The notes under the pieces were generated by a model. The model had not been told where the DNA came from, made no database searches, and worked only from the letters and a program-made list of their open reading frames with translations. DNA of 60,566 bases, counting the filler, from Sphacelaria rigidula (taxonomy: Eukaryota): the NCBI GenBank assembly GCA_964200075.2. It is 9 parts of 9 records of this genome, joined end to end, with 100 filler letters (N's around TTAATTAATTAA, not from the genome) between each part and the next. Parts side by side here need not be neighbours in the genome. Positions count along the whole stretch, not along the records: positions 1 to 6,641 come from CAXNAA020018885.1; 8 more parts are not named here. One strand, 5' to 3'. Position 1 is the stretch's first letter; every line of letters begins with the position of its first letter. Position numbers and translations under genes: made by a program. Shown here one piece after another: positions 1-56,000 of this stretch.

Positions 1-2925
1 CACGCGGTCCTCTCACGCATTACACTGAGGCCCCGGGCTCGAGTCTGAAGCGGGCGAGCTGCTGCTGCTAGTGACATATTGGTCCATCGATTTTGTGGTC
101 TACCTCTCGTGTGTGTGTGCCCTGTTTTCAACTCCTTTCCTCAACTGCCTCTCATGCGGCGCAGTTTCGGTGGGTTTCCATGTGGTTCAGGAGGCATAAT
201 GTAGGACGTACGTAAGATGGGTATGTACTGGCTGTACTGGTAGCCTCTGACGCAGTAAAATACAGGAAAACTGCCAGTTCAGGAATACTGTCAGTAGATA
301 CTGGTCCAGTCCCCAACCCTACGAATTCCAGAGCGTATCACATGCTGACTGTTGGCTGCACCAGGGTCCGAGTAGGCTGATCGGCTTTTCAGGAGAACCT
401 GGGTACAGTAGGAGCTCTTCCCCACAAAGGAGAACGGCGGAGGAAATGATGCTCCTACTGTGTGGATGACAAATACATTCACAATTGAGCCACTACGACG
501 AAGAAGATGGTCAAATGAAATCTGGGAGTCGAGAAAGGGAGGGAGAGTTCGAGGAGACGTGGCGGCGGGAAAACAAACGCCAATCGATCGGACCGTGGGG
601 AAGGCTGTTGCGAGAGCCGGCAATCGGAGTCGCCACACAGCGAACACTACAACAACAACGGCTATCGAGGACTTCAGGATGGAAATGATCACTAGAGTCA
701 CTGCTTTATATCCGACTAGTGATGAGTGGAGGAATCCGGGCTAACGAGGGAACTGGTTTACCCATGTCTTCTCTCGTCGGTCCTTGACTTTTTCTCCCTG
801 CTTGTTGTGGTCTTCCGGTGTTTATGGTTGTGCTCCTGCTGTACATTTTTAACTTTTGCGTTGGATTCCATCGCATCCGTATTTTTCGCCCTCTTCGTTG
901 TCTTGTTCTGTTTCCGGTCCATCTACTTATCTCTCGTCCCCCCCACCCCTCGTCCAAGTTCCAGTGTTCCACAGTAAGTGTGTTTGTGTAACTTCCACAT
1001 GGCTCGTCGGTGAGAGCTGAAGCTCTAAATTCTGCGGTTGCGAGAAAGCTGAGTGCGATCTATTTCCACAGTCTCTTGTCTCGTTTTGTGTATAGCGTTA
1101 GTTTTTGCCCACTGTCTTCTTCACCTATTATAGGTCGTGCTGCGGGGGGCAGGGGTCGGTGATATTTACAACGCTTCAACGCTGTGTAGAGAGCACTGCG
1201 TGCCGACAACGTTATTCTTCATAGAAAAAAACGGAATTGCAGTATAAAGCAACTCAGGCACTCCCAACGGAGATCAAACCGTCTCCACAAAGGCCTGAAG
1301 ACGCCACAGCGTAGCGACATCTTCAACACACAAGACAGAGCATGAGTTTGTTTGTGCTGCAGCACAGTGGTACAGGACATGTTCCATTCGATAATTCTTT
1401 CCCTGATTTTAGGTGGGTCCTCGAGTTTTGCCCAGGGGCGATTTTCAAACGCTCGGCCATAATCGCGCTTCGCGCGAAAATATTTTAATTCACTTTGAGT
1501 TACCCCTATCTGTGCGAGGTGATTTTTTTTTCTTTGCCATTACATCCTGGACTTTTCTAGATTCAACACTTGGCCCGAGTGTCGGGTTGTACAGTTGGTG
1601 CACCCCGAGCAAGGGTTGAAGCCTTCACTCGTGGGAATAATATGGCGTGTCTACTTCGTCAATCCGATATCACCCGGCAAAGTTACAACGGTTTCTTCAA
1701 AATCAGCAAACTGATCAAACAAGCGGGTAGTAACAGCCGGTCATCGAAATTGAGAATGGAGTTTTGGAGTTTTTCATTGACTGAGGATGAGAAGCCGGAA
1801 AATTAAAATATTCATATCCACACCAAATTTCCGAAACATGGCTCTATTCCTTCACCTACTGGTAGCTATTGACAAATATTATACGCCATTCAAATTTGGA
1901 TTTCGATGACCGACATGTTGGGGTCTTGGATGAAAAACTATTTCCGGGGAACGTCGGCGATCCGATCGGATCACATTTTTTCCTTCATTTTTTTTGTTCT
2001 TGTCTTTCGCTTTTCCTTCCTATTCCTTTTCCTGCACTTTTCTTCGATTTTTTGCTCTCTCCTTTCCCAGCCCCCCCCCCCCCCCCCCCCCTGTTTTCTT
2101 TTTCCCCCCTCCTTTTTTTCCGGGCCCCTCCCCGTTCTGTTCTCCCTTCGGCGGGGGGGGGGGNNNNNNNNNNTTTTTTTTTTTTTTGCTTTTTCTTCCC
2201 CTTCCCTTTCCCCCCCTTTTCTTCCTTTTTTTTTTCCCCCCTTCCCCCCCCCCCCCCCCCCCCCCCTCCTGTTTTATCTTCACTCTCTCGTTTATTACGG
2301 AGTCTCTCTCAGTTATGTTATCCTTCTGGCGGGGGGGGGGGCACTATATTGTGATCACAGCTGGACCCCTTGGGGGTACGCCAATGCGCGACAATGATCA
2401 AAGAGGGTGCTTGGTCGACGGCCTGCAAGTCCAAGAGCGGCTTGACTGCTTCATGTCGGTTGGGAAGCGAGTGTATGTGCGTAGGGGAAATCAATCGCAG
2501 TTTTATTTGTCGTGTCACATCGAACTGCGCATAAGTGGTTTCGTTTGCTTCTTCAATGGGTGTGAGCACTCGTCGACCCAACCGCGGTTTTCTTGCTGAG
2601 GACACAACGATGGACCTGGGTGTCAGACGGGACGTAAAAAGCAAGAGGGAGAACAGACCGATCCTACGGCTCGTCATGAAATCAGCCATAAATTTACTGC
2701 TCGACGCGGTTTCCGGTCAGCAGCCAGATGTTACAGATCCTGGATTAATAAGCCCATGAGCGACACACTTTATAAAATGAGGTTAAGGATGCCGAGGTGA
2801 GCGCGAGACGTAGCCAGAATCCCACTAGTCGAGCTCTGCTGTTGCTACCGCACGCAGTAGCTCGGCCACCTCCAAGACAATCCGGTTTCGTGACGATCCC
2901 CCGTCGCATGCTCCCGATAATACCC

Positions 2926-3427
2926 TCAGACATCGATCAATGATCTATCATCAATAATCTTCCCAATCTTGAGCTCGAGATCTTCTAACCTAGCTTCCAG
3001 CGTGGCCACTTTCCCCCTCAACAGTGTGTTCTCCTCCTCTGCCATAGTCAGTCTTGAACGATTCGATTCCTCTCGTACACGGTGACACTCGACTTCTTCT
3101 GCCCGCCTACCTGCACCAACACCCCCGCCTCGCGTCGTGTATCCCCGCCATTCGTTCGCATTGTCACCACAGCTAGAAGCTGTTGCAACCTCCGCATCAT
3201 TGCGTCGAGATTCAAGCGCATCAAGCCGCATGAGAGCTGAAGCCAGGGCTGAGTTGAGAATGGGCACAATGCGGGAGTACGCGACCACCTTGAAACCTTG
3301 CCTGTCTTCCGATACAAGCTGCGGTAAGACTTCTTCGAGCTCCTGGGCGATGAAACCGTGCTGCCGGCCCGTTAGGATTGTTCGCGACGCGTGTTGTCGA
3401 TCGCTGTTCCATGTGTAGGTTACGCCC
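2926..3427 (-). CDS. Terminal exon of a Gly-rich fibre-like protein; C-terminal half of the peptidase S74 (intramolecular chaperone) domain plus coiled coil
   Basis: After a CAG acceptor it reads (R)GVTYTWN...HGFIAQELEEVLPQLVSEDRQGFKVVAYSRIVPILNSALASALMRLDALE..., matching the S74 'GFIAQE..EV.P.LV' motif. It ends at TGA (2926), and its phase matches the upstream exon. Confidence 0.9.
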
Positions 3428-3902
3428 CTGGGTTCATCATAGGGAAGATTGTGTACAAGGGCTTCTCATTTAATTTGTTGTTTTCCGCACGCAAGAGCTC
3501 TGCGTCAGGAGCTTCGCTCGCTTGTTACTACTGCTTTGCTCGAGCCGAGCAGGCGCTGTTATTTTCACCGCAAAACAAACGAGTGCACATAGGAAAACCA
3601 AGTGCCTCCAGTCGGAAGTGGTCTGAGTCAGGTCAAGGCGTTGCGTTGCGTGGGACACTGGGTAATACTTCCTGTAAAGAAGATATTTTACTACACGTAC
3701 TCTCGCCATCATTCAAACTGGTGGCCATAAACTCGTGGTCATAGACGAAAAAGCTCACATCGTACATTCCCATAGATATGCCATCAACACGCAGTTCTTG
3801 TTGAGAAGATCCTCGCAACACCTTAAATTCACCCGCAACCGATTCATACTGTCTACTGTCTACATCAAGCTGCACCGAGCCATCACCGCTCGCGAAACTC
3901 AC

Positions 3903-4189
3903 CGCAATCGGCGAACAATGTCCACCGCGTCAACGCCCGAAATGTCCTCAATCTCCGCTTTCAACCGCGCGTCCGAGCTATCCATGTAGGGACCGCGTCC
4001 CATCACCGCTCCGGCCACGGTAACGGAGCCCTCGAACATACTGTCAGAATCCACTTTCAATGGACCTTCTATCTGCAGCCCTCCTTCCCCAATCGATAAC
4101 GAGGATAAACCAGTGATCCCACCCCCCGCCGAGAAGTTGAGGGCCGCAGACAGCAGCGCTTGACCGGCAAAGTTTACACTGCCTGTCAC
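3903..4189 (-). CDS. Internal exon of the S74 fibre-like gene, containing the autocleavage motif
   Basis: CAG acceptor and GTGAG donor. Reads VTGSVNFAGQALL...GPYMDSSDARLKAEIEDISGVDAVDIVRRL(R); S-D-x-R-L-K is the S74 Ser-Lys dyad motif. Confidence 0.9.
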
Positions 4190-4359
4190 CTGAATGGAAT
4201 TGAAGAGAAGTCGCGGGTAGCGTGAGGAACGGGGTCGCTGTGTTGGACAGAGTACACGCGTATAAAGGCGAGAACGGAAGGGATATTCGGATCCCATCAC
4301 GGGGCTCCATAGGTTCGAAAAAGTCTCCAAAGCCCCAAACATTGACCAATTGGAGCTTT

Positions 4360-4510
4360 GGGGGGGGGGGGTACTCATTTGTTGCTTGCCTTAGTCGTTC
4401 GACCATTGACCACGCATCCCTTTCGAGACGGAGCACCGGGTGTGTGAGGGGGAGAGGGTTCAGAATTTCCAGTCGAAGAAGTCCCCTGGCCCCATCATAA
4501 GTGGGGGGAG
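4360..4510 (+). repeat. Poly-G-headed dispersed repeat (copies at 6578-6641 and 13310-13382)
   Basis: G-run followed by TACTCATTTGTTGCTYGCCT..GTCGTT.GACCATTGACCACGCA.CCCTT is seen three times. Two copies end at contig breaks. Confidence 0.85.
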
Positions 4511-5289
4511 GAGACAACATTTGGAGTCGAGAGGAGAAAACGAGACGCATGTGGGCGGGGGCAGCTTGATTGGAAGAATACCGTTGAACAATTGATATCA
4601 CGGTTGAGATGTGCGAGAACTTGTACGTACTAACCTGTTGTGGTGATCGCTACTGTTTCATATTCTGCGTCTCAACATCTCGCGATCAATGGAACCGAAG
4701 TCCTCTGATATCGGGTCAAATGCTGCACACGGCGACAACCGTACAGAATGGCACAGGGTGGCTGAAAGGATAGATACATCACGCGTTTGTTCGAGGCAAG
4801 GAAAAAAGAGAAGATACCGGGGTATCAGTGCCTTCATTAGAAAAGCTCACCACGATTTTGCACAACACAGCGCGAACGACACAAATTGCACCAGGAGCAT
4901 GCGTCGCTTCGGCCTTGCCACCTATACTCTCACATCTCCCAATCTCGAGGACGTTCACGCGAGGTGGTCGCCATATTACATTGTTGATACATGGTTGTTT
5001 TTGCTAAACCCTAATCCTAACCCTAATCTCGATCCAACCCAAACCGAAAACAACGGTTGGGGGGATACATTGTATGCCATGGGCGAAGTGTGTGTTTGCA
5101 GAGCTCAAAGCGGCGCCGCGCTGTCCGGAGCACCTGGGACTGTCAGCCCCCAAAAGATCCGAGTACGATAGTCCACGCTGAAAGCAAGCATCTTCTCGCC
5201 CAACTACCTTGGCGACCAGCTCGCGTAAACTCTACAGCCCGCATCACAACGCAGTACGCAGGAGTTCCCTACGTTCGGCAGCAACTCGC

Positions 5290-5805
5290 CTCATGTCCAG
5301 CAATCTTCTGTGTCACGAACACCCCATCATCATCATCGAATCCCACGCCACGCGCCACTAGTAATTCCCCACCAGGGCCAGCAACAACCATCCTAGCCCT
5401 TGCCCCACCTCCACCTCCGATCTCCCGCCCCGCGGTAGCAAGTTCGCCAATCTTCGCTCCTCCCTCAACAACCATGTCTCCCAGCACATGCCCTCTGATA
5501 CTTGGATTTTCAAGGTAGGCGTTCTTTATTCGGTTTCCACTGGCATCGATCCCTCCCCCAAGTTCGAGCTCGCCGCCCACCGTCACACCGCCACCTATTT
5601 CAAGTTTTCCTCCTACGACGGCGGCGCCGCTGCAACGTAGCTCGCCGGCGTTGACAGGACCAGACGCTGATACGGAGGCGGCGGACAGGGTTAGGGCAGC
5701 CGGGTCCGCTGGGCCAATTAGACCGCGGGTGCCGATGGCCAGCAGGGAGTTTGTTGGCAACGAGGCGTGCGCGCTGAGGTGCAGGGCTCCGAGGACGGTG
5801 AGCTC
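5290..5805 (-). CDS. Internal exon of the S74 fibre-like gene (Gly-rich beta-strand repeats)
   Basis: Open 172-codon frame ELTVLGALHL...GGKLEIGGGVTVGGELELGGGIDASGNRIKNAYL...KIAGHE after a CAG acceptor. The donor is inferred to be non-canonical (GAG|GCGAGT), so the 3' boundary is less certain. Confidence 0.75.
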
Positions 5806-6193
5806 CTGATCGCGCGCGTGCGGACGGGGTGAGGGGTGGTTGGATGGTCAGGTGGGTGGGGGTGAGGGCGAGCTGATTGTTTGGAGTCAGTGTTGGACAT
5901 TCAACTTGGATAATTTCGATCAGGTGATTGACCGGTGGCACGGAAAGGGGGCTAGGCGGGTGGCGAAGAGGGCAAGGTATACAATGATTGTCGAAGGGGG
6001 CGTGAGGTCACATTCGTAAGGAAAATCATTATCCACATGTCTCACCATGATGTTTTTGTCGTGTGATACAATCCGTAAGTCAACGGTGATATTACGAATT
6101 CAGGACGTCACTCTGCGTGACATGATCCAACGACTTTTCGTTGTAGTAGGTATTGGTGTGTGTAACGTCTACAAAATATCTTGCCGTTATTAC

Positions 6194-6535
6194 CTCGAGC
6201 TCAGCTAAGTTCGGAACGCCTCCGCCATCAGAGTTCAACAACCGGTGCCCCGCCAGGTCTAGATTGCCTTCCAACGTCGTCGTGCCTCCAAGCTTTAAAT
6301 TCTGAATTGCACCATCCTTGAAGGCAAGGCCCCCTCCACCCCTAGCCTGGCCAAGCGTTGACGCTCGAGCCGTCGTTGTTGATCCTCTACCGTCGCCGTC
6401 TTCAATCCCGTTGCCGTTCGAAAAAACCGCAAGATATCCCTCACTTACTGGCGGTCGGCTCGAGACCGACAATTCGCCAGTGTGCAAGCGCGGTACGACC
6501 CCCCTGCGCAGAGAGGCGGTTTGACGGAGTTTAGC
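6194..6535 (-). CDS. Most 5' visible exon of the S74 fibre-like gene; the gene is 5'-truncated by the contig end
   Basis: CAG acceptor and GAG|GTAATA donor. The 114 codons include GGGGLAFKDGAIQNLKLGGTTTLEGNLDLAGHRLLN, the same repeat type as the next exon. Confidence 0.75.
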
Positions 6536-6641
6536 CTGGAATGTGGTATTTATAGTAGAAAAATTGCATTTGTAGTGGGGGGGGGGGCGTACTCATTTGT
6601 TGCTCGCCTTCGTCGTTTGACCATTGACCACGCATCCCTTT

Positions 6642-6741
6642 NNNNNNNNNNNNNNNNNNNNNNNNNNNNNNNNNNNNNNNNNNNNTTAATTAATTAANNN
6701 NNNNNNNNNNNNNNNNNNNNNNNNNNNNNNNNNNNNNNNNN
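6642..6741. other. Artificial contig linker; identical linkers at 13383, 20124, 26865, 33606, 40347, 47087 and 53827
   Basis: 44 N + TTAATTAATTAA (stop codons in all six frames) + 44 N. The intervening contigs are 6641 or 6640 bp. Confidence 0.99.
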
Positions 6742-7298: not shown

Positions 7299-7376
7299 AC
7301 TAACCCTGACCCTAACCATATGGATGTTCAAATTCCGATGCTGTCCTCAGAGCACGCGGTCCTCTCACGCATTACA
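7299..7376. mobile_element. MITE family A, truncated end (another end lies at 1-24)
   Basis: CTAACCCTGACCCTAACC...CACGCGGTCCTCTCACGCATTACA. Confidence 0.75.
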
Positions 7377-8631
7377 CTTAGTATAGTCATTCGCGTAGGG
7401 CAAACACCTTCACATCACCCACCTTCGCTCATCCGTCGGGCCCAAGACCACTACTCTCTGGAAGACAGACATCAATCGATATTGCAAGTTCTGGGACTGC
7501 TTACAGTCAGCACACCCAAGGCACAGCGCACCCACTGCGTTTGAGGAGCCATGCTACGACAGGGGGTGGGGGTTCGATTGCACGAAGACATGTGCTCATA
7601 GATGCGTCAAACGACCTAGAACACTCGCGCACCGCTTGTTTTTGGGCAAACGCCATGTAAAGCAGTATGAATATGAGCGTTATCTATCGGGGGCAAGCGC
7701 GTGCGAACACCTGTCAGCTGCTTTCAGCAATGCTTGAAGTAGAATTTCGTGGAAGAAAACGGCCCAGAATACCCCTTCCTCCGCCTCTATCGTAGAACGG
7801 CTGTTTGTTGCATACGTTAGGTATGGGGACGCTCGAGCCACCAGTGCGTGGCCGTTCCCTCCGAGGCTTTAAAGCAACACGAATCGGTCCTGTGAATAAA
7901 TGTCTCTGACATATACGAAGTATATATATATATATATATCCATGGGCGCGTCGGTATGGCAGTACTGGTGTATCGACCCAAAATGTGTAATCCAATGGCT
8001 GCCGCCTCCAATCTCAACTGTGACGCTCCATCGTGACTAACTAATCCGATGACTCCTCCCGCCATAATAATAATAATTATTATTATTATATCCGTCACAT
8101 CAGCTCGATCTCTGGAACCCGTGGATCACAGACGTAGGCTCGCCTTTCCAATACCGTCCCTTCTATTCCTTACAAGAGATGGAGCTCTCATCGTTTCTTA
8201 TGAGATTCCAAAACAAGGACAAAACACAGAAACAAAAAAAAAATCCGGAACAAATGAAAACAAGGAGAGAGGCGCCAAGAAAACAGAAGAGATAGCTTTT
8301 CTCCCGCATTAATAATCGGGGTGGGGCGAAAACAAACCCGTCAGATCTGCTCATGAAGTATACGGAAGAAAAAGCGAGAGAGAAGAAAAGACAGGAAGGA
8401 CAAGAGGGGTGAGTATATGCACCCTAAATTCGCGGGCACCCAAAGGGGCTGAGTAAGCCTTTAGATACCGAGCTGCTGAGGATTAAACCGAATTTCCGGG
8501 AGACTGCCGCTTCCATCCTTACCACCACCCCTCCCTGCGGGACGAATGTTTTCAGCGTGAAAAATTTGAGCGCTAGCAGCCTCCATCTTCTGTTTGGTAA
8601 GCATTAGCGAAGCAGCAACGACGGTGTATAC

Positions 8632-9583: not shown

Positions 9584-9797
9584 TGTAATAATGCTTGAGA
9601 GGACCGCGTGCCTGGGGGACCGCATCGGAGTTTCAACACCCCTATGGTCGAGGTTAGGGCCAGGGTCGGTGTTGGTGTTGGGGTAAGGGGTGCGGTCCCT
9701 GCAGGGACTGGCCCGATTGGTTTTGAAATCCGTTTATCCTGAGGTGTTTTGAACTACGATGCGGTCCCCTAAGCACGCGGTCCTCTCACGCATTACA
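9584..9797. mobile_element. MITE family A copy in a dynein intron (opposite orientation)
   Basis: Same TIRs and the same internal CCCTGCAGGGACTGGCCCGATTGG segment. Flanks TGAGC/TGGGC form a 5-bp TSD with one mismatch. Confidence 0.85.
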
Positions 9798-12378: not shown

Positions 12379-13482
12379 CTGCGTATGGACACAACATATC
12401 AAGGGTATACCGGCTGAAACTCGGGTACTTGCGAAAGTATCAAAGAGGCGTTTCATCGAGAATTACCCTTCCGGACCGTGCTTGGAACATGATTCGATAC
12501 ATCGCAGCACCAAACCGGAAAGGTTGGTACACATTCCGGTGTGGCGTATAAAGTATACCAACCGCAAATCACCGACCTTCAGGAATACCCTGCAGAACAC
12601 AACCTTGCAAGATACGATGGACTGAATAAACCTTTTTGGGACCGTTGACGGAAAAATGATGATTCATAGTTGACGTCGTTTTCTTGGGGAAGATGTTGTT
12701 GTTGTTGCTGCTGCTGTTGTCTTCACATTAAAAACCGTTCCGATATCTGCGCGGTACACTCGTAATATGGTGTGTTTTTCTTCAACTATTTACGATGCAG
12801 CCCACTAAAACGGCGCACCACTTTGTGTTCAAGTATACTACTAATGTGACAGATTCGTGCACCAAACTCTACGTGACGTTTTTTCCGGTGACGAAAGCTT
12901 GCATATTAAGGGAGTTTGCACTGTTTTTTGCGAGTTCCGAAAGGGCTAAAATGGTATACGTTGGGATAAATCGCACAGCATACAACGGAACAGAGACGTC
13001 TATTTTATGCACAGTAGTAACAGGTGTTTTTTTAATCTGTACTCCACAGAGCATTCGGATCAGTAAACATTACAATCGACACGTTCTACGACATCCCCGC
13101 CCCGAAAAAGTGGCTGATTTGGGCAGGCAAACTCTGCACATAAATCGAGATGGAAAAAGCATATCCAGCTCAACGACAAGCTAGGAATTCCCACGATTGG
13201 GTCCGTTTTCGCCAATGTCGCTCATATGAGGCGTTTTATGCAGCCTGAAACCAGACATCAAGCGCCGTATGACCATTTTCTTCGAGACAGTTTTGGCCTG
13301 GTTTGGGGAGGGGGGGGGGGGGGGGCGTACTCATTTGTTGCTTGCCTCAGTCGTTTGTGACCATTGACCACGCACCCCTTCCNNNNNNNNNNNNNNNNNN
13401 NNNNNNNNNNNNNNNNNNNNNNNNNNTTAATTAATTAANNNNNNNNNNNNNNNNNNNNNNNNNNNNNNNNNNNNNNNNNNNN

Positions 13483-20123: not shown

Positions 20124-20223
20124 NNNNNNNNNNNNNNNNNNNNNNNNNNNNNNNNNNNNNNNNNNNNTTAATTAATTAANNNNNNNNNNNNNNNNNNNNN
20201 NNNNNNNNNNNNNNNNNNNNNNN

Positions 20224-26370: not shown

Positions 26371-26964
26371 ACTGACGGTCGCCCATCGTATGTTTGATCG
26401 TGGGCGCATTATATGAGTGTATAACGCTTCTTTCTCTACAGTGTATCATGCATTCGTCCTTGACCGGATAAGTTTCCCCGTCTTTTCACTGTCTCATTTC
26501 AAGTTTTTAAGGTTCGAATGCTGGGCCATTCGCACGACAGCACATACTGTACATACAAAAGTTCGCAAACGAGATTGAACGCCGGCTTGAGTCTTCCTGG
26601 CATTGCCCAGACAGAACTACGTCGGTACCCTTGGTTCTACACGTGTATGACAGGTTTACACCGCCCGGCAATCTACATATTTCCCTGGCTTGACAAGCTT
26701 TTGTTTCACTGTACACAGACTGATGGATTTTCCACTTTTCCATCAGATCAAACCGCCACGAAACCAGCCGTTGGGGCAGATGCTGCAGCTGTTTTTTTAA
26801 GCACAATCTTCAACCTTCTAGGATTTCAAATTTCATTGCAGAGTTGAAGTGTTCACCGCTTCATNNNNNNNNNNNNNNNNNNNNNNNNNNNNNNNNNNNN
26901 NNNNNNNNTTAATTAATTAANNNNNNNNNNNNNNNNNNNNNNNNNNNNNNNNNNNNNNNNNNNN

Positions 26965-28559: not shown

Positions 28560-29062
28560 GTGAGTGATATCGCTATAGTTTGCTCGTTTGATCTTCTCAA
28601 GGTTCGGGGAGCGGTGTAAAAAGTAGAGATGCCGTGGATCAAGGCGACGAATGTCGGGTGGATTATGGCCCAGAGGTCTTATTGTTTGTTTTCTGAACGA
28701 GTTGGACACCTCTTCTTTCTTCTCGTGGTGACTGATTTTTTTTTCTTGGCCTCTGCAGCATCTCGGGAAACACATTTGCCTGATCGACGACCATGTAGTT
28801 GAATGGCGGAGGGCCCCGTCGTTCTCACGCTTACATTTGTACACAGGGAGTTTTGACGCAAACAACATCTCTGAAGCCCGGAGGTTCGGTGCCCGTGTCA
28901 CGGCGAGGCACGGGATTATTGATCTCGGCTGGTCCTCCAGCACCCTAGATGCATATCTTCTTGTGACGCGAAATCAACACTTTAATATGTACATCACTGA
29001 GTCGTCGACATTAACTCTTGCTGCGTTTTTTTTTGTCGAATTATTACTGGTGATGGACACAG

Positions 29063-29181
29063 ACAAGACACCGGAAGAGGTGGCAAGAGAGTTCAACATT
29101 ACAGAGCCATTTTCTCCTGAGGTGGAAAAGAAGCTGAGGGAGGAGAATAAGTGGAGCACAGAACCACCAGTGTCGCGCTAG
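29063..29181 (+). CDS. SKP1: SKP1-like protein, last exon
   Basis: Reads (N)KTPEEVAREFNITEPFSPEVEKKLREENKWSTEPPVSR*, the SKP1 C-terminal motif KTPEE....FNI...F.PE......EN.W. Phase-compatible with the previous exon. Confidence 0.92.
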
Positions 29182-33230: not shown

Positions 33231-36200
33231 CATGAAACGTGGGACCTCCCTTGACAAGAGCCGCCCTCAAGTGGGTACACCGCTTTACTGTAGTACCATT
33301 GAACCACTCCCCAAGAACTGATGATGCGTCGCGTTGAGTTCCAGAATGGAACCAAAAACTTGACTGTGGCGCTGACAACCTACATATGAAATTGAGCGTG
33401 ACAATCGCATGCTACGATAGCCCCCCATAACTAACTCCAAAACTGTCACGAAGAGAATGGTCATACAGCACATTTTGCCGCCTCAAACCAGCCACTTCTT
33501 CTCAGGGGGGGGGGGGGGGGGGGAGCACATGGTCGAGGCCCCCACCCGGCCTCCCACAGCTAATAATAATACTCATTCTTGTGTTCTCGCGAGAGGGGGG
33601 GAGTGNNNNNNNNNNNNNNNNNNNNNNNNNNNNNNNNNNNNNNNNNNNNTTAATTAATTAANNNNNNNNNNNNNNNNNNNNNNNNNNNNNNNNNNNNNNN
33701 NNNNNCTAAGATTGTTCGGCCCAAAGCCTACTGAATATCTTGCATTTGGATGACAGCTTCCAATGAGTTGCTTTAGTCTGTGGTATCGCCACTTTCTGAG
33801 ACAGCCACAGCTAGTACACTGCCTCACAGGTGCCTCACCATTGGTGTGCCAGGTGTAGCTAGACTGAAGGTGCAAGGAGGGAGTGTCCGAGAGGAAAGGC
33901 TGCTCTACGCTGTGCACGAGGTTGTGGTTCGAGTGCTGCTATTTCTCAGGAGCGGGCTGGCGGACTAGAAAGAAGGCATTACCTGAGGTGTTTGCTGTTG
34001 TGATGAGCGCCGAGTTAGGTGCTAATGTTGAGGAGCAAGTGCTGAGGTGATTGAGTGCTTGCTGAGAGTGAGAAAACACAAGATGATTGGTGTTCGCGAA
34101 TCGTTTTGACAATGATCACAGCTTGTCATTGTGTGGTTTGTGGTCATGTTTGCGCATGAAACATGGTTGTTGAGCGAGTATGATCGCATCGCGTGTTCAG
34201 GGTAAAACTCTGGCGTACACGTGGATATTTCGCATGTGTGTGTTGTGCTGATGTGGTTGGCACGGACGATGCATGGTGTTTGCTGCGAGGAAGGTGGCAT
34301 TGCATGTGCTGAGTAAAGTGTTGGCATGCATGTGCGGATTTTCATATGCTAAGTGGAATTTTGGCAGGCATGTGCGAATGTTTTATCGAATGGTACTGAT
34401 ATGAATGGTATCTGGTGACGATCTAGGGTTGGGCAGTTGTCAATATACTGCTGTATGCTAATTGAAGTGAAGCTCGTATAATTTTGTTCGCACAGGAACG
34501 CAGTCGAACCATATTTGTGCGGTTTGCACGCACTGACTGCAGGATATATGGATTGCTGCTGTTAGCGTGAAAATGAGCTGAAATATACGAAATGCGTAGG
34601 CTCGTCGCCGTTGTTAGATTGATATACACGGCTTGAAAAGCGGTTTGAGCCATGTCTTTCCTTTAATTGTCTTTATGAAATGAAGGCAAGTTGAAGCATT
34701 GAAGCTTTGACGGCGGGGAGGCATGCGATGCATACGATTTCTACGGGGTTGCAGAAGCAAGAGGCCAGGTGCGTGTTAGACGTGTTGGGTGCATATTTCC
34801 TTCTAGCGTGAGGATGATGAGTCATTTCGCTGTTGCACTCCGTTGCGCAGGTGTTGAACGTACAAAGAGTGAATTCTGTATGTTGAGAAGTACCTTGTCT
34901 CGGATGAGAGGGACGATGAGTCACGAGTGCTCTGGAATTTGACGTTTGCTGACATTTCCGGTTTCGAGCCGATGAAGAGTCAAGAAACTTGTTTTGGGCG
35001 AAGATTTGAGAATTTGGCGCGAGCTATCGCTTTGTAACTCGAAGTGGTGCAAGTAGCGTGATTGCATGTTCATGATGGACGATATTTACTTAGATCTCTT
35101 GCGAGTTGTTCGCAAGTAGGGCAAGCTTGTATGGAGCTGTTGTCGAAAGCAGCGGAAGAGATTGCTAATCTTTGCGGAAACGACGGTACTATCAGGCACC
35201 AATGATATCTGAGTTTGTCAAGCTCTGATGTAACTACTTGTTGATAGTAGAGAGCTTTGGGGGTGCTATAGACTCTAGCCACCATTGTTACCTAGGGACA
35301 TTTGTAGGTGGAGTTGCGCGTCTGATTGCCGGACTCTGTGATGGTGACCTCCATGACGAGTAGGGTTGATTTTGCCACTCTGGTGGAGAGAGGCTATGGC
35401 CATCTTCTCCCGTACTATGCTGAGGGTTAATACATAAATAACTAAAGCTGCTGAAGACCATGTGCCCGTGATGGGAAGAGTCTACATGGCAAGCTGATCT
35501 TGAGTGACAGAAGTCTATAGCTGATGATCGACACGGACACCATCCGGAGCAGAGCAACTACGTGCATAGCTATTATAGCAGCCAGACGCGATGCGAGTGC
35601 GGTTTTTCCTGCCCAGGGTGATGCTTCGACGGAGTAGCATGCCGCAACAACGACAGCGATTGCGACTACAGCAGTATGATTGCTGGTAGGGCGCAGAAGA
35701 TGTTATTTAAATAACCTGCACACAAGTGCAAGTATCAACCACCATTAGCCCACACTCATGGATGAGGCACACATTGGGCATCCGGCGCGCGCAGCCTTCG
35801 GATAGACAGCACAGTGCAGTTGGTGTGTTCATCCGGGCAATGCTGTTCTTCCTTGCTGCGACTTAGACCCGCTTTTGCCTACGTTTGTGTCGCAAAGGTC
35901 AGAACAGATTTCACAATTAAAAACTGTACATCACGCTCAGGTGCCGTTTCCATAATACAAGACCCACGAGTCCAGAAGGCCCGCAAAACGTATGTGGTGA
36001 ACTGCATGCTGACAGTAGATCAGGTTCTAAATTACGTACTGTACTACAGCGCAGGAGGAAGAGGTGAGAAAATGAAGCAAAAATACTGGAAAGTGTACCG
36101 TACCCGTCACACCACTGCCCAGAATATGACAGCTGGTCTCCTCGATACGCTTTGTTCCTTTTTGTCACACTTGATCAAGGGCATCGCCACCACCCGTTCG

Positions 36201-53000: not shown

Positions 53001-56000
53001 TATGTATATTCGGAACTGTTGTTTATCAACTTCCAACAGTTGCCTCTGCCCCACTGTTAACTTGGTGCCCACAAAATACTCCACCACTGTAACGTGCAAC
53101 ATAGACATGGTGGAGTATTTGAAAATCATCATCTTCAGCGGTCGGAAAAAATGGGTGCAAGAGTTTGAGGACATGTGGCGACGCGAAGGTGAACGAGGAT
53201 CAGATTGACGTCACAAAAAAGAAGTTGCTGTGTTGAGCTATTCAGAGCAGCACACACAGGCATACCAAATTCCACGCGTACACCGGCATTTTCCAGTGAA
53301 CGCAACACGAGCACACCCGCTCTACTGCCATGCTTCATGCGCGAACAGCAACAGAAATATGACCCAAAAAGCACACCATATCAACCTTCAATCGACAGAA
53401 AACGATTCGGAAATACCAGTCATCTTGTGTTTTCTCATGCTCAACGAGTACCCTTACAAGTTCTTGCTCCTCAGCAATATCCAATCCGGAGCTCACCACT
53501 AAATCTCTCATCTCAGGTGATCCCCGCTTTGTAGGCTTCCAGTCCGCTCCTGCGAAGTAGCAGCACTGGAACCACCACCTTCTGCACACCATAGAGAAAC
53601 AATTCCTTTCGTACGGTAGCTCCTATCAGCCACCTCTAGCACCCCCATGGTGAATCTCAACATGCCATCAAACAGCATATCCTTACCGCCGAGCCAATAC
53701 AACAAATACTCTGCCTCCGCAGAAGCTTGCGCATCGACGATTTCTCCTGTTTCAGACGCTTTTTTAGGCGAAACGAGAGGTGGAACGGGAACAACCATAC
53801 AGTCCCGCATAGCAACAGCTCTCGAGNNNNNNNNNNNNNNNNNNNNNNNNNNNNNNNNNNNNNNNNNNNNTTAATTAATTAANNNNNNNNNNNNNNNNNN
53901 NNNNNNNNNNNNNNNNNNNNNNNNNNACATGTTCCTGGAAGAGAGGTGTCCACGTCAGCACGGAAAGCTGGAGCTGCAGGCAAGGCCAGTGGCTACGGCG
54001 CTCGGATGGCAAGGGATGCATGTCAACATGTACGGAGGAAGCGCTTGATATACAAGAAATATACATCCCACGCGAAAACTCGACAAAATTGGCACTGTGT
54101 TCTCGGAGCCGGTAGAACTGGACTGACTGTACGACGTGAATCACACCTGGGCAGGGCTGAAATTCCCGCTATCAATCCATAACCACTGACGCGTGCCCTC
54201 GACCCCACTTTGACAGCAAGTAAAACGAGGGAAACTCCGCGAAAAGGCCGACCAGGTGCATGTCGGTAAAAGCTCAAGATACCCGCGTGGGAGGCTGCCC
54301 GACGAACTTCGCAGCTTGAATTTGATCCTCCGGACTAGAAGACACCAGCAACCGCCCCCGTAGTGGTCACTTTGTCGTAATGTCTCCCACGCAAGCCATG
54401 GTACTGTCTGTAAGAGGACGTTATCCCCATCCAGAACGGCTTCACGGTGGTCCTTGGCATAGGAAATTGTCCTCTTCGACTCGGCTGTACGGCCACATCT
54501 AGCGCACGACGGGGTATGAAACCGAAGGCCAGCAGCCTCAACGGTGCGACGAAGTCGGACTGGTGATCGTCATCTGTGTTTCTGCGGGCGTAGCGTCAAT
54601 CGAAACGTGGTCCAACCTGAACAACTAGGCTGGCCGCTGCCTCGGCGTCGATATCGTGCCCTCCATAATCGTCGTTCGGAAGTGAAAAATCTTCCGAGCG
54701 AAGGGGCAGCATGGTGCATAATCATCCCTTCAGCTCACGCATGCAGCGTACAAACCGTCTAGGGCCGCCGATACCGTTGAGGCATAGCTACCTGCGGTCT
54801 CAACCTGTACATACTTGAAGTTTCAGTGTCATCAGACGCCAAGTGCGCTGTGTTTCAACGCCCAACCTTTCGAAATACCGCCTCTACACCGATGACAACG
54901 GAACAACACTGTGTACTGCTGTAGTACTGACTGTGACTTGTGAGGTATGCTGGAATCAATGCACTCTCTCGAGACTTCTGAGCCAGTGTGGTAGAGCTTG
55001 ATTACGTGTGTCATTCTCTGCACTAACGACCAGCCAGCAAGACGTGCTTCAGGTCGTTCGTCAGGCTGGGGCCCAAGGGGGTAAACACCATCACACCCCA
55101 TACCGTCCTACGGCACCATCCCCTAGCCTACTGCACGCACGTTTGTTCGGCAAGTTGCGACACTCCGTTACCTATAACTTGTGTGCGTTTTACACGCTGT
55201 CACAAGCGTTTTGTCTTTGTTTGACTTTGGGCGCAAATTAACCCAGATATAAGACACATACGGCATGGTGGCAGCGCTGTCACCGAAATCGTGCGCTTGG
55301 GTTTTCGGAATAATTACCATTTTGCATTGGACAGCACGGATGCAGGGTATACAACACCCGATAAGGTCCAGTACCTACATTTTGTAGATACTTCGCAGTA
55401 GGCATCTGATCGGATACTCTCAAGATCACCCCTTTTTCGGCTGTTTTTGTCCATGGTGTAAGATATCCCACCACTCACTTGATCGGATGAAACTTTCCAC
55501 ACGTTGGACAGATCATGATTCGTCCGAAAATTCCTCGTTCTCAGTATATTCATCTGGTTCACGATCCGCATCATTTGCTCCCCCTTTTTCCAATGTGGGC
55601 TCATTACAGCGCCGGGGGGCGAGCACGCCGAGTAGCATTAAGGTTGCGCTTCGGCTTTTCTGACTCCACGGCTACGTATTTTGTGTTTTTGGACAAACGG
55701 ATTCGAGAGTCTTATTTGAGCAATTGTTTCAGACAAATCATGAAATGTTCGACGTGTGACAACTTTCACGAAGTATCATTACTTGATTTTAGAGTTACAC
55801 TGACCTTCGAATCTTCAGTGGGGCCGATAGTCCCAAGTGCTCCTACCGTAGCGTGAGCAGAACGCGTTTCTGTCCCACTCGGCGCCCCAGGAACTGTTTT
55901 GAATTCTGCGATTGCACGCTTTTCCCAGAGCACCCTCTACACTCTCCTTGCCCGAGGATTCACGGTATACCTGTGGTAGGGGTCGGACTCAGCGTTATTT

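Follow-up and report, generated by a model that had tools for sequence, protein, structure and literature searches.

The Peptidase_S74 domain (PF13884), or ICA domain, is the C-terminal intramolecular chaperone of phage endosialidases, of the K5 lyase, of the L-shaped tail fibre of T5 and of the neck appendage of GA-1. An ICA domain also occurs in MYRF of animals, for which the available text of PMC8326128 places the catalytic dyad at S587/K592, equivalent to S911/K916 of endoNF, and the cut between P586 and S587, and describes a C-terminal ICA helix that drives trimerisation. As far as the accessible reports go, the S74 fibres of polinton-like and algal giant viruses are thought to act in attachment. 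The stramenopile mastigoneme proteins PnMas1-3 are described in the accessible part of 10.64898/2026.09.11.750887 with three EGF-like domains and, in that description, without S74. Here we analysed a window of 60,566 nucleotides (the whole stretch of DNA) from Sphacelaria rigidula, and in particular a gene with an S74 domain on the minus strand of its first scaffold (1-6641). Taking our explanation as a whole, it is probable that the product of this gene is a trimeric extracellular fibre of the host, which matures when a Ser-Lys dyad cleaves its own chain, and that what is visible amounts to at most the 3′ two-thirds of a nuclear gene in a brown alga or close relative, as the named relatives below suggest.

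Four long minus-strand open frames of 166, 192, 163 and 179 amino acids lie within 2926-6592. We built an exon model from the splice signals and then joined the exons by script, which gave 1614 nucleotides: 537 codons, uninterrupted by any stop, and a single stop at the end. The features of the gene, in the direction of transcription, are these:

6194-6502, minus strand: exon A, 103 codons, containing LGGTTTLEGNLDLAGHRLLN, with the acceptor GCGCAG/GGG
5806-6193, minus strand: intron 1, GT-AG, phase 0, GAG/GTAATA ... ATCAG/GAG
5290-5805, minus strand: exon B, 172 codons, glycine-rich shaft
4190-5289, minus strand: intron 2, GC-AG, phase 0, donor GAG/GCGAGT, acceptor CAG/G
3903-4189, minus strand: exon C, 95 codons plus 2 nucleotides, last shaft segment and first third of the S74 domain
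3959-3976, minus strand: codons for S-D-A-R-L-K, the predicted Ser-Lys dyad (S-x4-K), with the cut expected just before the Ser
3428-3902, minus strand: intron 3, GT-AG, phase 2, within the S74 domain, CG/GTGAGT ... CCCAG/G
2929-3427, minus strand: exon D, remainder of the S74 domain, linker and coiled coil
3190-3427, minus strand: exon D part 1, remainder of the S74/ICA domain (GVTYTW, GFIAQELEEVLP, long helix), Pfam E 1.7e-7
2929-3189, minus strand: exon D part 2, variable linker and family-specific C-terminal coiled coil ENTLLRGKVATLEARLEDLELKIG, the coiled coil at about 2944-3066
2926-2928, minus strand: stop codon, end of the exon D frame
2585-2925, minus strand: 3′ untranslated region of at least 340 nucleotides, with contigs of sequencing run X1 (see below) over 2585-2844 and 2900-3112

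All four acceptors read CAG/G, and intron 2 contains a copy of a 64-nucleotide dispersed repeat (4360-4423) together with a CCCTAA-like run. The initial annotation had proposed four phase-compatible spliceosomal exons, and this proposal held with the 537 open codons obtained after joining, as did the peptides that it quoted, all of which we found on the minus strand. The extent that it gave to the gene, up to 6535, had to be corrected, since the first visible exon begins at 6502/6503 instead, the match of the contigs stopping at 6503. Exon A is not the first exon of the gene; the N-terminus is missing, as was noted at the outset, because the scaffold stops at 6641.

Eight public sequencing runs from two studies contain the stretch, none of them recorded as RNA. 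Over 2500-6641 we compared runs X1-X3 from one study, which were taken to be RNA by guess only, with the DNA run X5 from the other. In X1, the contig of record 3 joins position 3426 to 3902, with intron 3 removed, and that of record 4 joins 4188 to 5289, with the GC-AG intron 2 removed; both joints are the modelled junctions within the one-base ambiguity of the shared G. Record 6 of X1 and record 14 of X2 match 6193-6503 and are flanked on both sides by letters located elsewhere, those on the 5′ side numbering 29-39. Depth in X1-X3 was zero in the intron bins 3473-3889, 4446-5001 and 5836-6113, and run X5 spans the introns in single contigs (2500-4386 and 4414-6601). Since spliced contigs in X1-X3 stand beside intron-spanning contigs in X5, the runs contain spliced transcripts of an intron-bearing gene, which is thus transcribed and spliced with the structure given above. 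The view that this is a spliced host gene therefore gained from spliced contigs in three RNA-like runs as well as from the open joined frame; of what the proposed mapping of RNA was expected to deliver, two junctions came out exactly and two further exon ends were fixed, while the 5′ exons were not recovered.

At the start of exon D, Pfam Peptidase_S74 matched over profile positions 24-57 (E 1.7e-7, 31.8 bits against a cut-off of 22), positions 1-24 being matched at the end of exon C, and Peptidase_S74 was the only Pfam family above cut-off in exon D. Because the profile is divided between exons C and D, intron 3 lies inside the domain, in agreement with the initial annotation; the spliced product aligned unbroken across the exon C/D junction with each of two S74 proteins from bacteria, over residues 274-448 in one case (E 1e-20) and 333-452 in the other (E 7e-18). 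The same S74 stretch is encoded uninterrupted in 73 of the 80 viral loci that matched best in IMG/VR. In a relative, P0044, SDARMK aligns to ADLRAK of the MYRF ICA crystal chain 7dc3 (E 0.007), and through this relative the S-x4-K of our gene aligns to S587/K592 of MYRF, which is consistent with the intact S74 domain and Ser-Lys dyad that had been read from the DNA. From this alignment we infer that the protein would cleave itself at the SDARLK motif, just before its Ser. An AlphaFold model of exon D, made from a 3-row alignment and without the first third of the S74 domain, had a mean predicted local distance difference test score (pLDDT) of 63.8 and contained helices 25-37 and 50-85, a low-confidence linker and then a confident helix 106-161, with block-mean pLDDT of 78-94 for residues 121-160. 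In the terminal coiled coil, a clean 3-4 hydrophobic spacing can be read from the sequence. The coiled coil is kept in the relatives P0005 and P0006, the linker that precedes it ranging from about 45 to about 240 residues. Past residue 87, exon D had no match among phage records or in IMG/VR, and phmmer found no match for exons C and D among PDB sequences.

For the glycine-rich shaft, we folded three copies of exon B together and obtained an interaction prediction score from aligned errors (ipSAE) of 0.80 (0.83, 0.80 and 0.80 in three runs) versus 0.00 for the best of three controls; the scoring was calibrated on two copies and on microbial proteins, and exon B was the only part folded as a trimer. 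In the predicted trimer the partner pLDDT was 81-84 with 969-1030 contacts, and the runs agreed in at least 88% of contacts. Between neighbouring chains the least-error contacts ran in i/i+6 register over residues 58-80, which is the pattern of an intertwined parallel trimer. The exon B shaft is thus predicted to form an intertwined homotrimer, and the trimeric fibre that had been proposed for this gene found support in the model. At least 346 shaft residues precede the predicted cut site. The known part of the protein has its highest 19-residue hydropathy, 1.42, in the ICA helix and contains no membrane-type segment. Exons A and B matched no Pfam family and no PHROG family, and the scores of exon B in the protein atlas were all below 0.9.

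An exhaustive search with exon B returned 23 proteins at E <= 0.001, namely the window's own open frame, 15 open-frame fragments of relatives with 41-74% identity, and 7 weak matches, at least 6 of which are long bacterial-type repeat proteins. Exon A found 12 relative fragments and exon D 2 more (P0005 and P0006); the nearest relatives were 62-74% identical per exon, and exon C was 57-59% identical to brown-algal relatives. Many of these fragments end or begin where our exons do. All 15 exon B relatives read GH[EKQ]V at the exon end and diverge after it; all 12 exon A relatives read E/D-V at the exon end (the Val being GTN) and likewise diverge after it, 4 of the 12 also extending further upstream and diverging before G-x-V-P-S-L. 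The open frames of P0005 and P0006 start at G-V-T-Y, the equivalent of the exon D start, and in the relative P0019 an intron that is short and in frame leaves exons B and C within one open frame. Because the frames of the relatives stop and start at the same exon borders, the intron positions are old and shared, and because all 15 exon B relatives carry GTN at the donor site, the GC donor sets this copy apart.

A profile search for longer proteins gave four named NCBI records (P0044-P0047), all annotated as unnamed protein products, from the following species:

Hapterophycus canaliculatus: 784 amino acids
Ectocarpus sp. 8: 636 amino acids (partial)
Ectocarpus sp. 12: 1727 amino acids
Ectocarpus fasciculatus: 1736 amino acids

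Residues 1-522 of the 537 in the spliced product align to residues 1163-1712 of P0046 (1727 amino acids) with 44% identity (E 4e-122), and the product aligns similarly to P0047 and P0044, the closest named relatives being 44-48% identical. P0044, P0046 and P0047 score 44.6-46.2 bits over S74 profile positions 1-57. In P0046 and P0047, a hydrophobic segment at about 14-41 (19-residue hydropathy 1.95 and 1.79) is accompanied by EGF-type Pfam matches at 40-78 and 217-243, with 16 of 18 and 16 of 17 cysteines, respectively, falling within the first 242 residues; then come about 1250 glycine-rich residues almost without cysteine, the S74 domain at about 1500 and the same terminal coiled coil. In these complete relatives Pfam found only EGF-type modules and S74, and no NDT80, and for the N-terminus of P0046 the protein atlas returned only EGF-type clusters. 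Between their EGF-like matches, at residues 79-216, both proteins also carry a cysteine-bearing module of about 140 residues that matches no Pfam family. None of the relatives' upstream exons was found anywhere in the window. By these alignments the window gene belongs to a brown-algal EGF-fibre-S74 family. The family is apparently undescribed; a literature search that took in few subscription journals and no supplements turned up no account of S74 fibres encoded by algal hosts. Given the hydrophobic signal anchor and the pair of EGF-like modules at the start of the complete relatives, the secretory pathway is the most likely place of synthesis of the fibre, which would be displayed or secreted, and by analogy this copy too would be extracellular and could serve in adhesion or structure.

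The mechanism that we propose starts from a long glycine-rich fibre chain almost without cysteine. Three such chains would associate via the C-terminal ICA domain, possibly aided by the extra terminal coiled coil, and the shaft would then zip into an intertwined trimer. After the trimer has formed, the dyad in S-D-A-R-L-K would cut each chain just before the Ser, freeing the ICA domain, linker and coiled coil as a C-fragment of about 191 residues and leaving the mature fibre. If its N-terminus is as in the relatives, the fibre would be held at the cell surface or shed from it, the newly cut end being the distal one.

The setting of the gene bears on how it may be explained. The window is divided by artificial linkers and holds two kinds of dispersed repeat:

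6642-6741, 13383-13482, 20124-20223, 26865-26964: artificial linkers N44-TTAATTAATTAA-N44, the first of eight
33606-33705, 40347-40446, 47087-47186, 53827-53926: artificial linkers of the same form, the rest of the eight
4360-4423, 6578-6641, 13316-13380, 37959-37999: 64-nucleotide dispersed high-copy repeat, beside a G run
1-26, 7353-7378, 9774-9797, 45353-45376, with inverted copies: second dispersed repeat, about 25 nucleotides, on the fibre-gene scaffold and on others

The linkers are regularly spaced at about 6741 nucleotides, with pieces of about 6641 nucleotides between them. The window thus apparently consists of unplaced scaffolds sorted by length and chained as a pseudo-molecule, which makes gene neighbourhood across the linkers meaningless and matters for any neighbourhood reading within the window. 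The copy of the 64-nucleotide repeat at 6578-6641 is the point at which scaffold and gene are cut off, and it is 94% identical to the copy at 4360-4423 in intron 2; the copy at 13316-13380 terminates the next scaffold, so that scaffolds break at this repeat. Its summed depth was 1e5-1e6 in all four runs (X1-X3 and X5), and an Rfam scan of 1-6641, which includes it, matched no family. Since both dispersed repeats are common to the fibre-gene scaffold and its neighbours, one of which carries an axonemal dynein exon (below), these belong to the same genome, which speaks for a host origin of the gene. Downstream of the 3′ end of the gene lies a pyrimidine-rich low-complexity block (1997-2341) with long C/T runs and a 10-N gap. 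On the neighbouring scaffold, a minus-strand open frame at 8461-8814 matches axonemal dynein heavy chains near residue 1350 (best E 1.5e-6). We rejected this frame as a part of the fibre gene, as it is a dynein exon on a different scaffold; the presence of an axonemal dynein exon in the window indicates that the organism has flagellate stages. A Skp1 dimerisation domain exon (PF01466, E 2.2e-9) lies on the plus strand at 29059-29154.

Several observations weigh against the autocleaved trimeric fibre. The support for the trimer is a model score and not a measurement, and the AlphaFold model of the exon B monomer was poor (pLDDT 53). Taken alone, the S74 match at the exon C end (E 0.024, 15.3 bits) falls below the cut-off, and Foldseek matched the exon D model to no structure at E <= 0.001, 7dc3 appearing at rank 5 with E 1.5. 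Since none of this copy's own 5′ exons was recovered, an anchor and EGF modules are attributed to it by assumption, on the model of relatives only 44-48% identical. The spliced contigs, moreover, come from runs of one study that are RNA by guess, and in X1-X3 the part of intron 2 that adjoins the GC donor, about 5002-5289, is covered by contigs as well, unlike the remainder of that intron. This cover could represent intron retention, a short isoform ending 6 codons past exon B or an antisense transcript; some of the transcripts may therefore be cut short at that stop and encode no S74 domain. The GC donor itself is unique to this copy.

The last of these points lead to the alternative that survives best, a decaying or truncated paralogue, that is, a non-functional duplicate that is still transcribed. 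It would fit an unplaced 6.6-kb scaffold cut at a repeat, a GC donor where 15 of 15 relatives have GT, the unspliced-type cover adjoining that donor, and a long branch relative to the Ectocarpus and Hapterophycus proteins. However, 537 codons are open across four exons, the dyad and the ICA motifs are intact, the GC-AG intron is spliced in X1, and relatives closer than the named proteins exist at 62-74% identity per exon, so that an orphan copy is not required; we regard a decaying duplicate as fairly unlikely.

A second alternative is that the fibre gene belongs to an integrated virus (a phaeovirus, another giant virus or a polinton-like virus) rather than to the host, and it has to be judged by how far the resemblance to phages and viruses extends. 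The ICA half of exon D found 40 phage records, all with less than 60% identity, the ten listed covering query residues 1-77 and being mostly annotated as tail fibres, and it matched 17 PHROG families of tail-fibre type. In IMG/VR, 188 of 597 pattern matches to the ICA half were confirmed, the best 80 being 28-49% identical and including six giant-virus bins. With exon A, none of 41 pattern matches in IMG/VR and none of 147 in JGI metagenome contigs was confirmed, and no IMG/VR relative came up for exon B or exon C, each used as a single query, these pattern-based viral scans detecting close relatives only. Exon C gave two marginal rows in PHROGs (E 0.023 and 0.082). The detectable resemblance to phage and viral proteins is thus limited to about 77 residues of the S74 part. 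In a tree of ICA domains (78 rows, 99 columns), the four algal sequences formed one clade (100/99) on a long stem, with no supported sister group. The clade is compatible with a single acquisition, and the tree names no donor. The phylogeny suggested earlier was therefore informative on the unity of the algal domains and not on their source, and the idea that the whole fibre is a domesticated viral or phage fibre is not supported, since the resemblance found is confined to the S74 residues and the scans of IMG/VR gave no relatives for the shaft exons.

The virus hypothesis draws on the six giant-virus bins, on S74-capped fibres that the available portion of PMC12220804 calls ubiquitous in the polinton-like viruses of most eukaryotic groups, with ochrophytes among the exceptions, and on those that the accessible text of 10.64898/2026.02.06.704369 gives for a raphidophyte giant virus. 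Yet the gene has three spliceosomal introns whose positions are common to its relatives, it carries host dispersed repeats within and beside it, the N-terminus of the relatives is of EGF type, exons A, B and C lack IMG/VR relatives, and the one algal ICA clade has no resolved viral sister, which together render an integrated virus very unlikely. Least credible of all is a membrane-tethered transcription factor freed by ICA cleavage as in MYRF/MrfA, which are the only characterised eukaryotic ICA proteins as far as the available parts of PMC3742443 and PMC3828593 show, and to whose chain 7dc3 P0044 does align, because no membrane segment follows the ICA domain, the complete relatives combine an N-terminal anchor and EGF modules with no NDT80 match, at least 346 shaft residues come before the cut site, and the ICA domain is far closer to bacterial and phage S74 domains (E 1e-20) than to MYRF, so that the initial annotation was right to set the gene apart from MYRF.

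With the host-encoded, autocleaved trimeric fibre as the preferred explanation, this gene would represent a second, independent eukaryotic use of the self-cleaving tail-fibre chaperone besides MYRF/MrfA, in a multicellular algal lineage. As far as the modelling goes, the ICA domain would here keep its original job, the assembly of a long trimeric fibre, in a host gene that has introns, an EGF-type foot and an extra coiled coil. Should this be confirmed, the gene would offer brown-algal cell biology a new candidate for a surface or matrix filament, and would show clearly how an assembly module from phages or bacteria can become established in a family of eukaryotic structural genes. A bolder proposition, which we hold to be rather improbable, is that brown algae took phage tail-fibre assembly chemistry into their own secretory pathway and so build an unrecognised extracellular filament that is anchored or matrix-bound, EGF-footed, trimeric, longer than 1200 residues and tipped by an end exposed by autocleavage. 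If this were true, the filament might belong to the surface coat, to an adhesive or to the flagellar-hair apparatus of zoids. Towards phaeoviruses it could play the part of a decoy or a receptor, and the coiled-coil fragment, once released, might have a separate function.

Compared with the known systems, the algal protein resembles the phage ICA proteins in its Pfam match, the S-x4-K dyad, the G-F-I-A-Q-E motif, the long helix after the beta part and the placement of the ICA domain at the end of a predicted trimeric shaft. It differs from them in that the gene is nuclear and has three spliceosomal introns, one inside the domain, in that the shaft has no detectable phage relative, and, from phage and viral matches alike, in that a linker and then a conserved coiled coil of about 35 residues come after the ICA domain. 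With the S74 fibres of polinton-like and giant viruses of algae, as the available text of PMC12220804 and of the Heterosigma akashiwo virus preprint presents them, it shares a long, modular build and a single C-terminal S74 domain, whereas the algal gene is spliced, lies among host repeats, belongs to a brown-algal family and has no IMG/VR relatives outside the ICA domain. The mastigoneme proteins PnMas1-3, compared by description from the accessible part of their report, are likewise secretory-pathway proteins with EGF-like modules that form extracellular filaments of flagellate stramenopiles; a link between them and the algal fibre would be speculation by analogy. Finally, like MYRF of animals and MrfA of Dictyostelium, the algal protein is encoded by an intron-bearing eukaryotic gene, has the same predicted dyad and does not end with its ICA domain. 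In contrast to theirs, its ICA domain is followed by neither a membrane segment nor a MYRF C-terminal domain, and its complete relatives have no NDT80 and carry their hydrophobic anchor at the N-terminus, so that cleavage would free a chaperone from the tip of a fibre and not a factor from a membrane.

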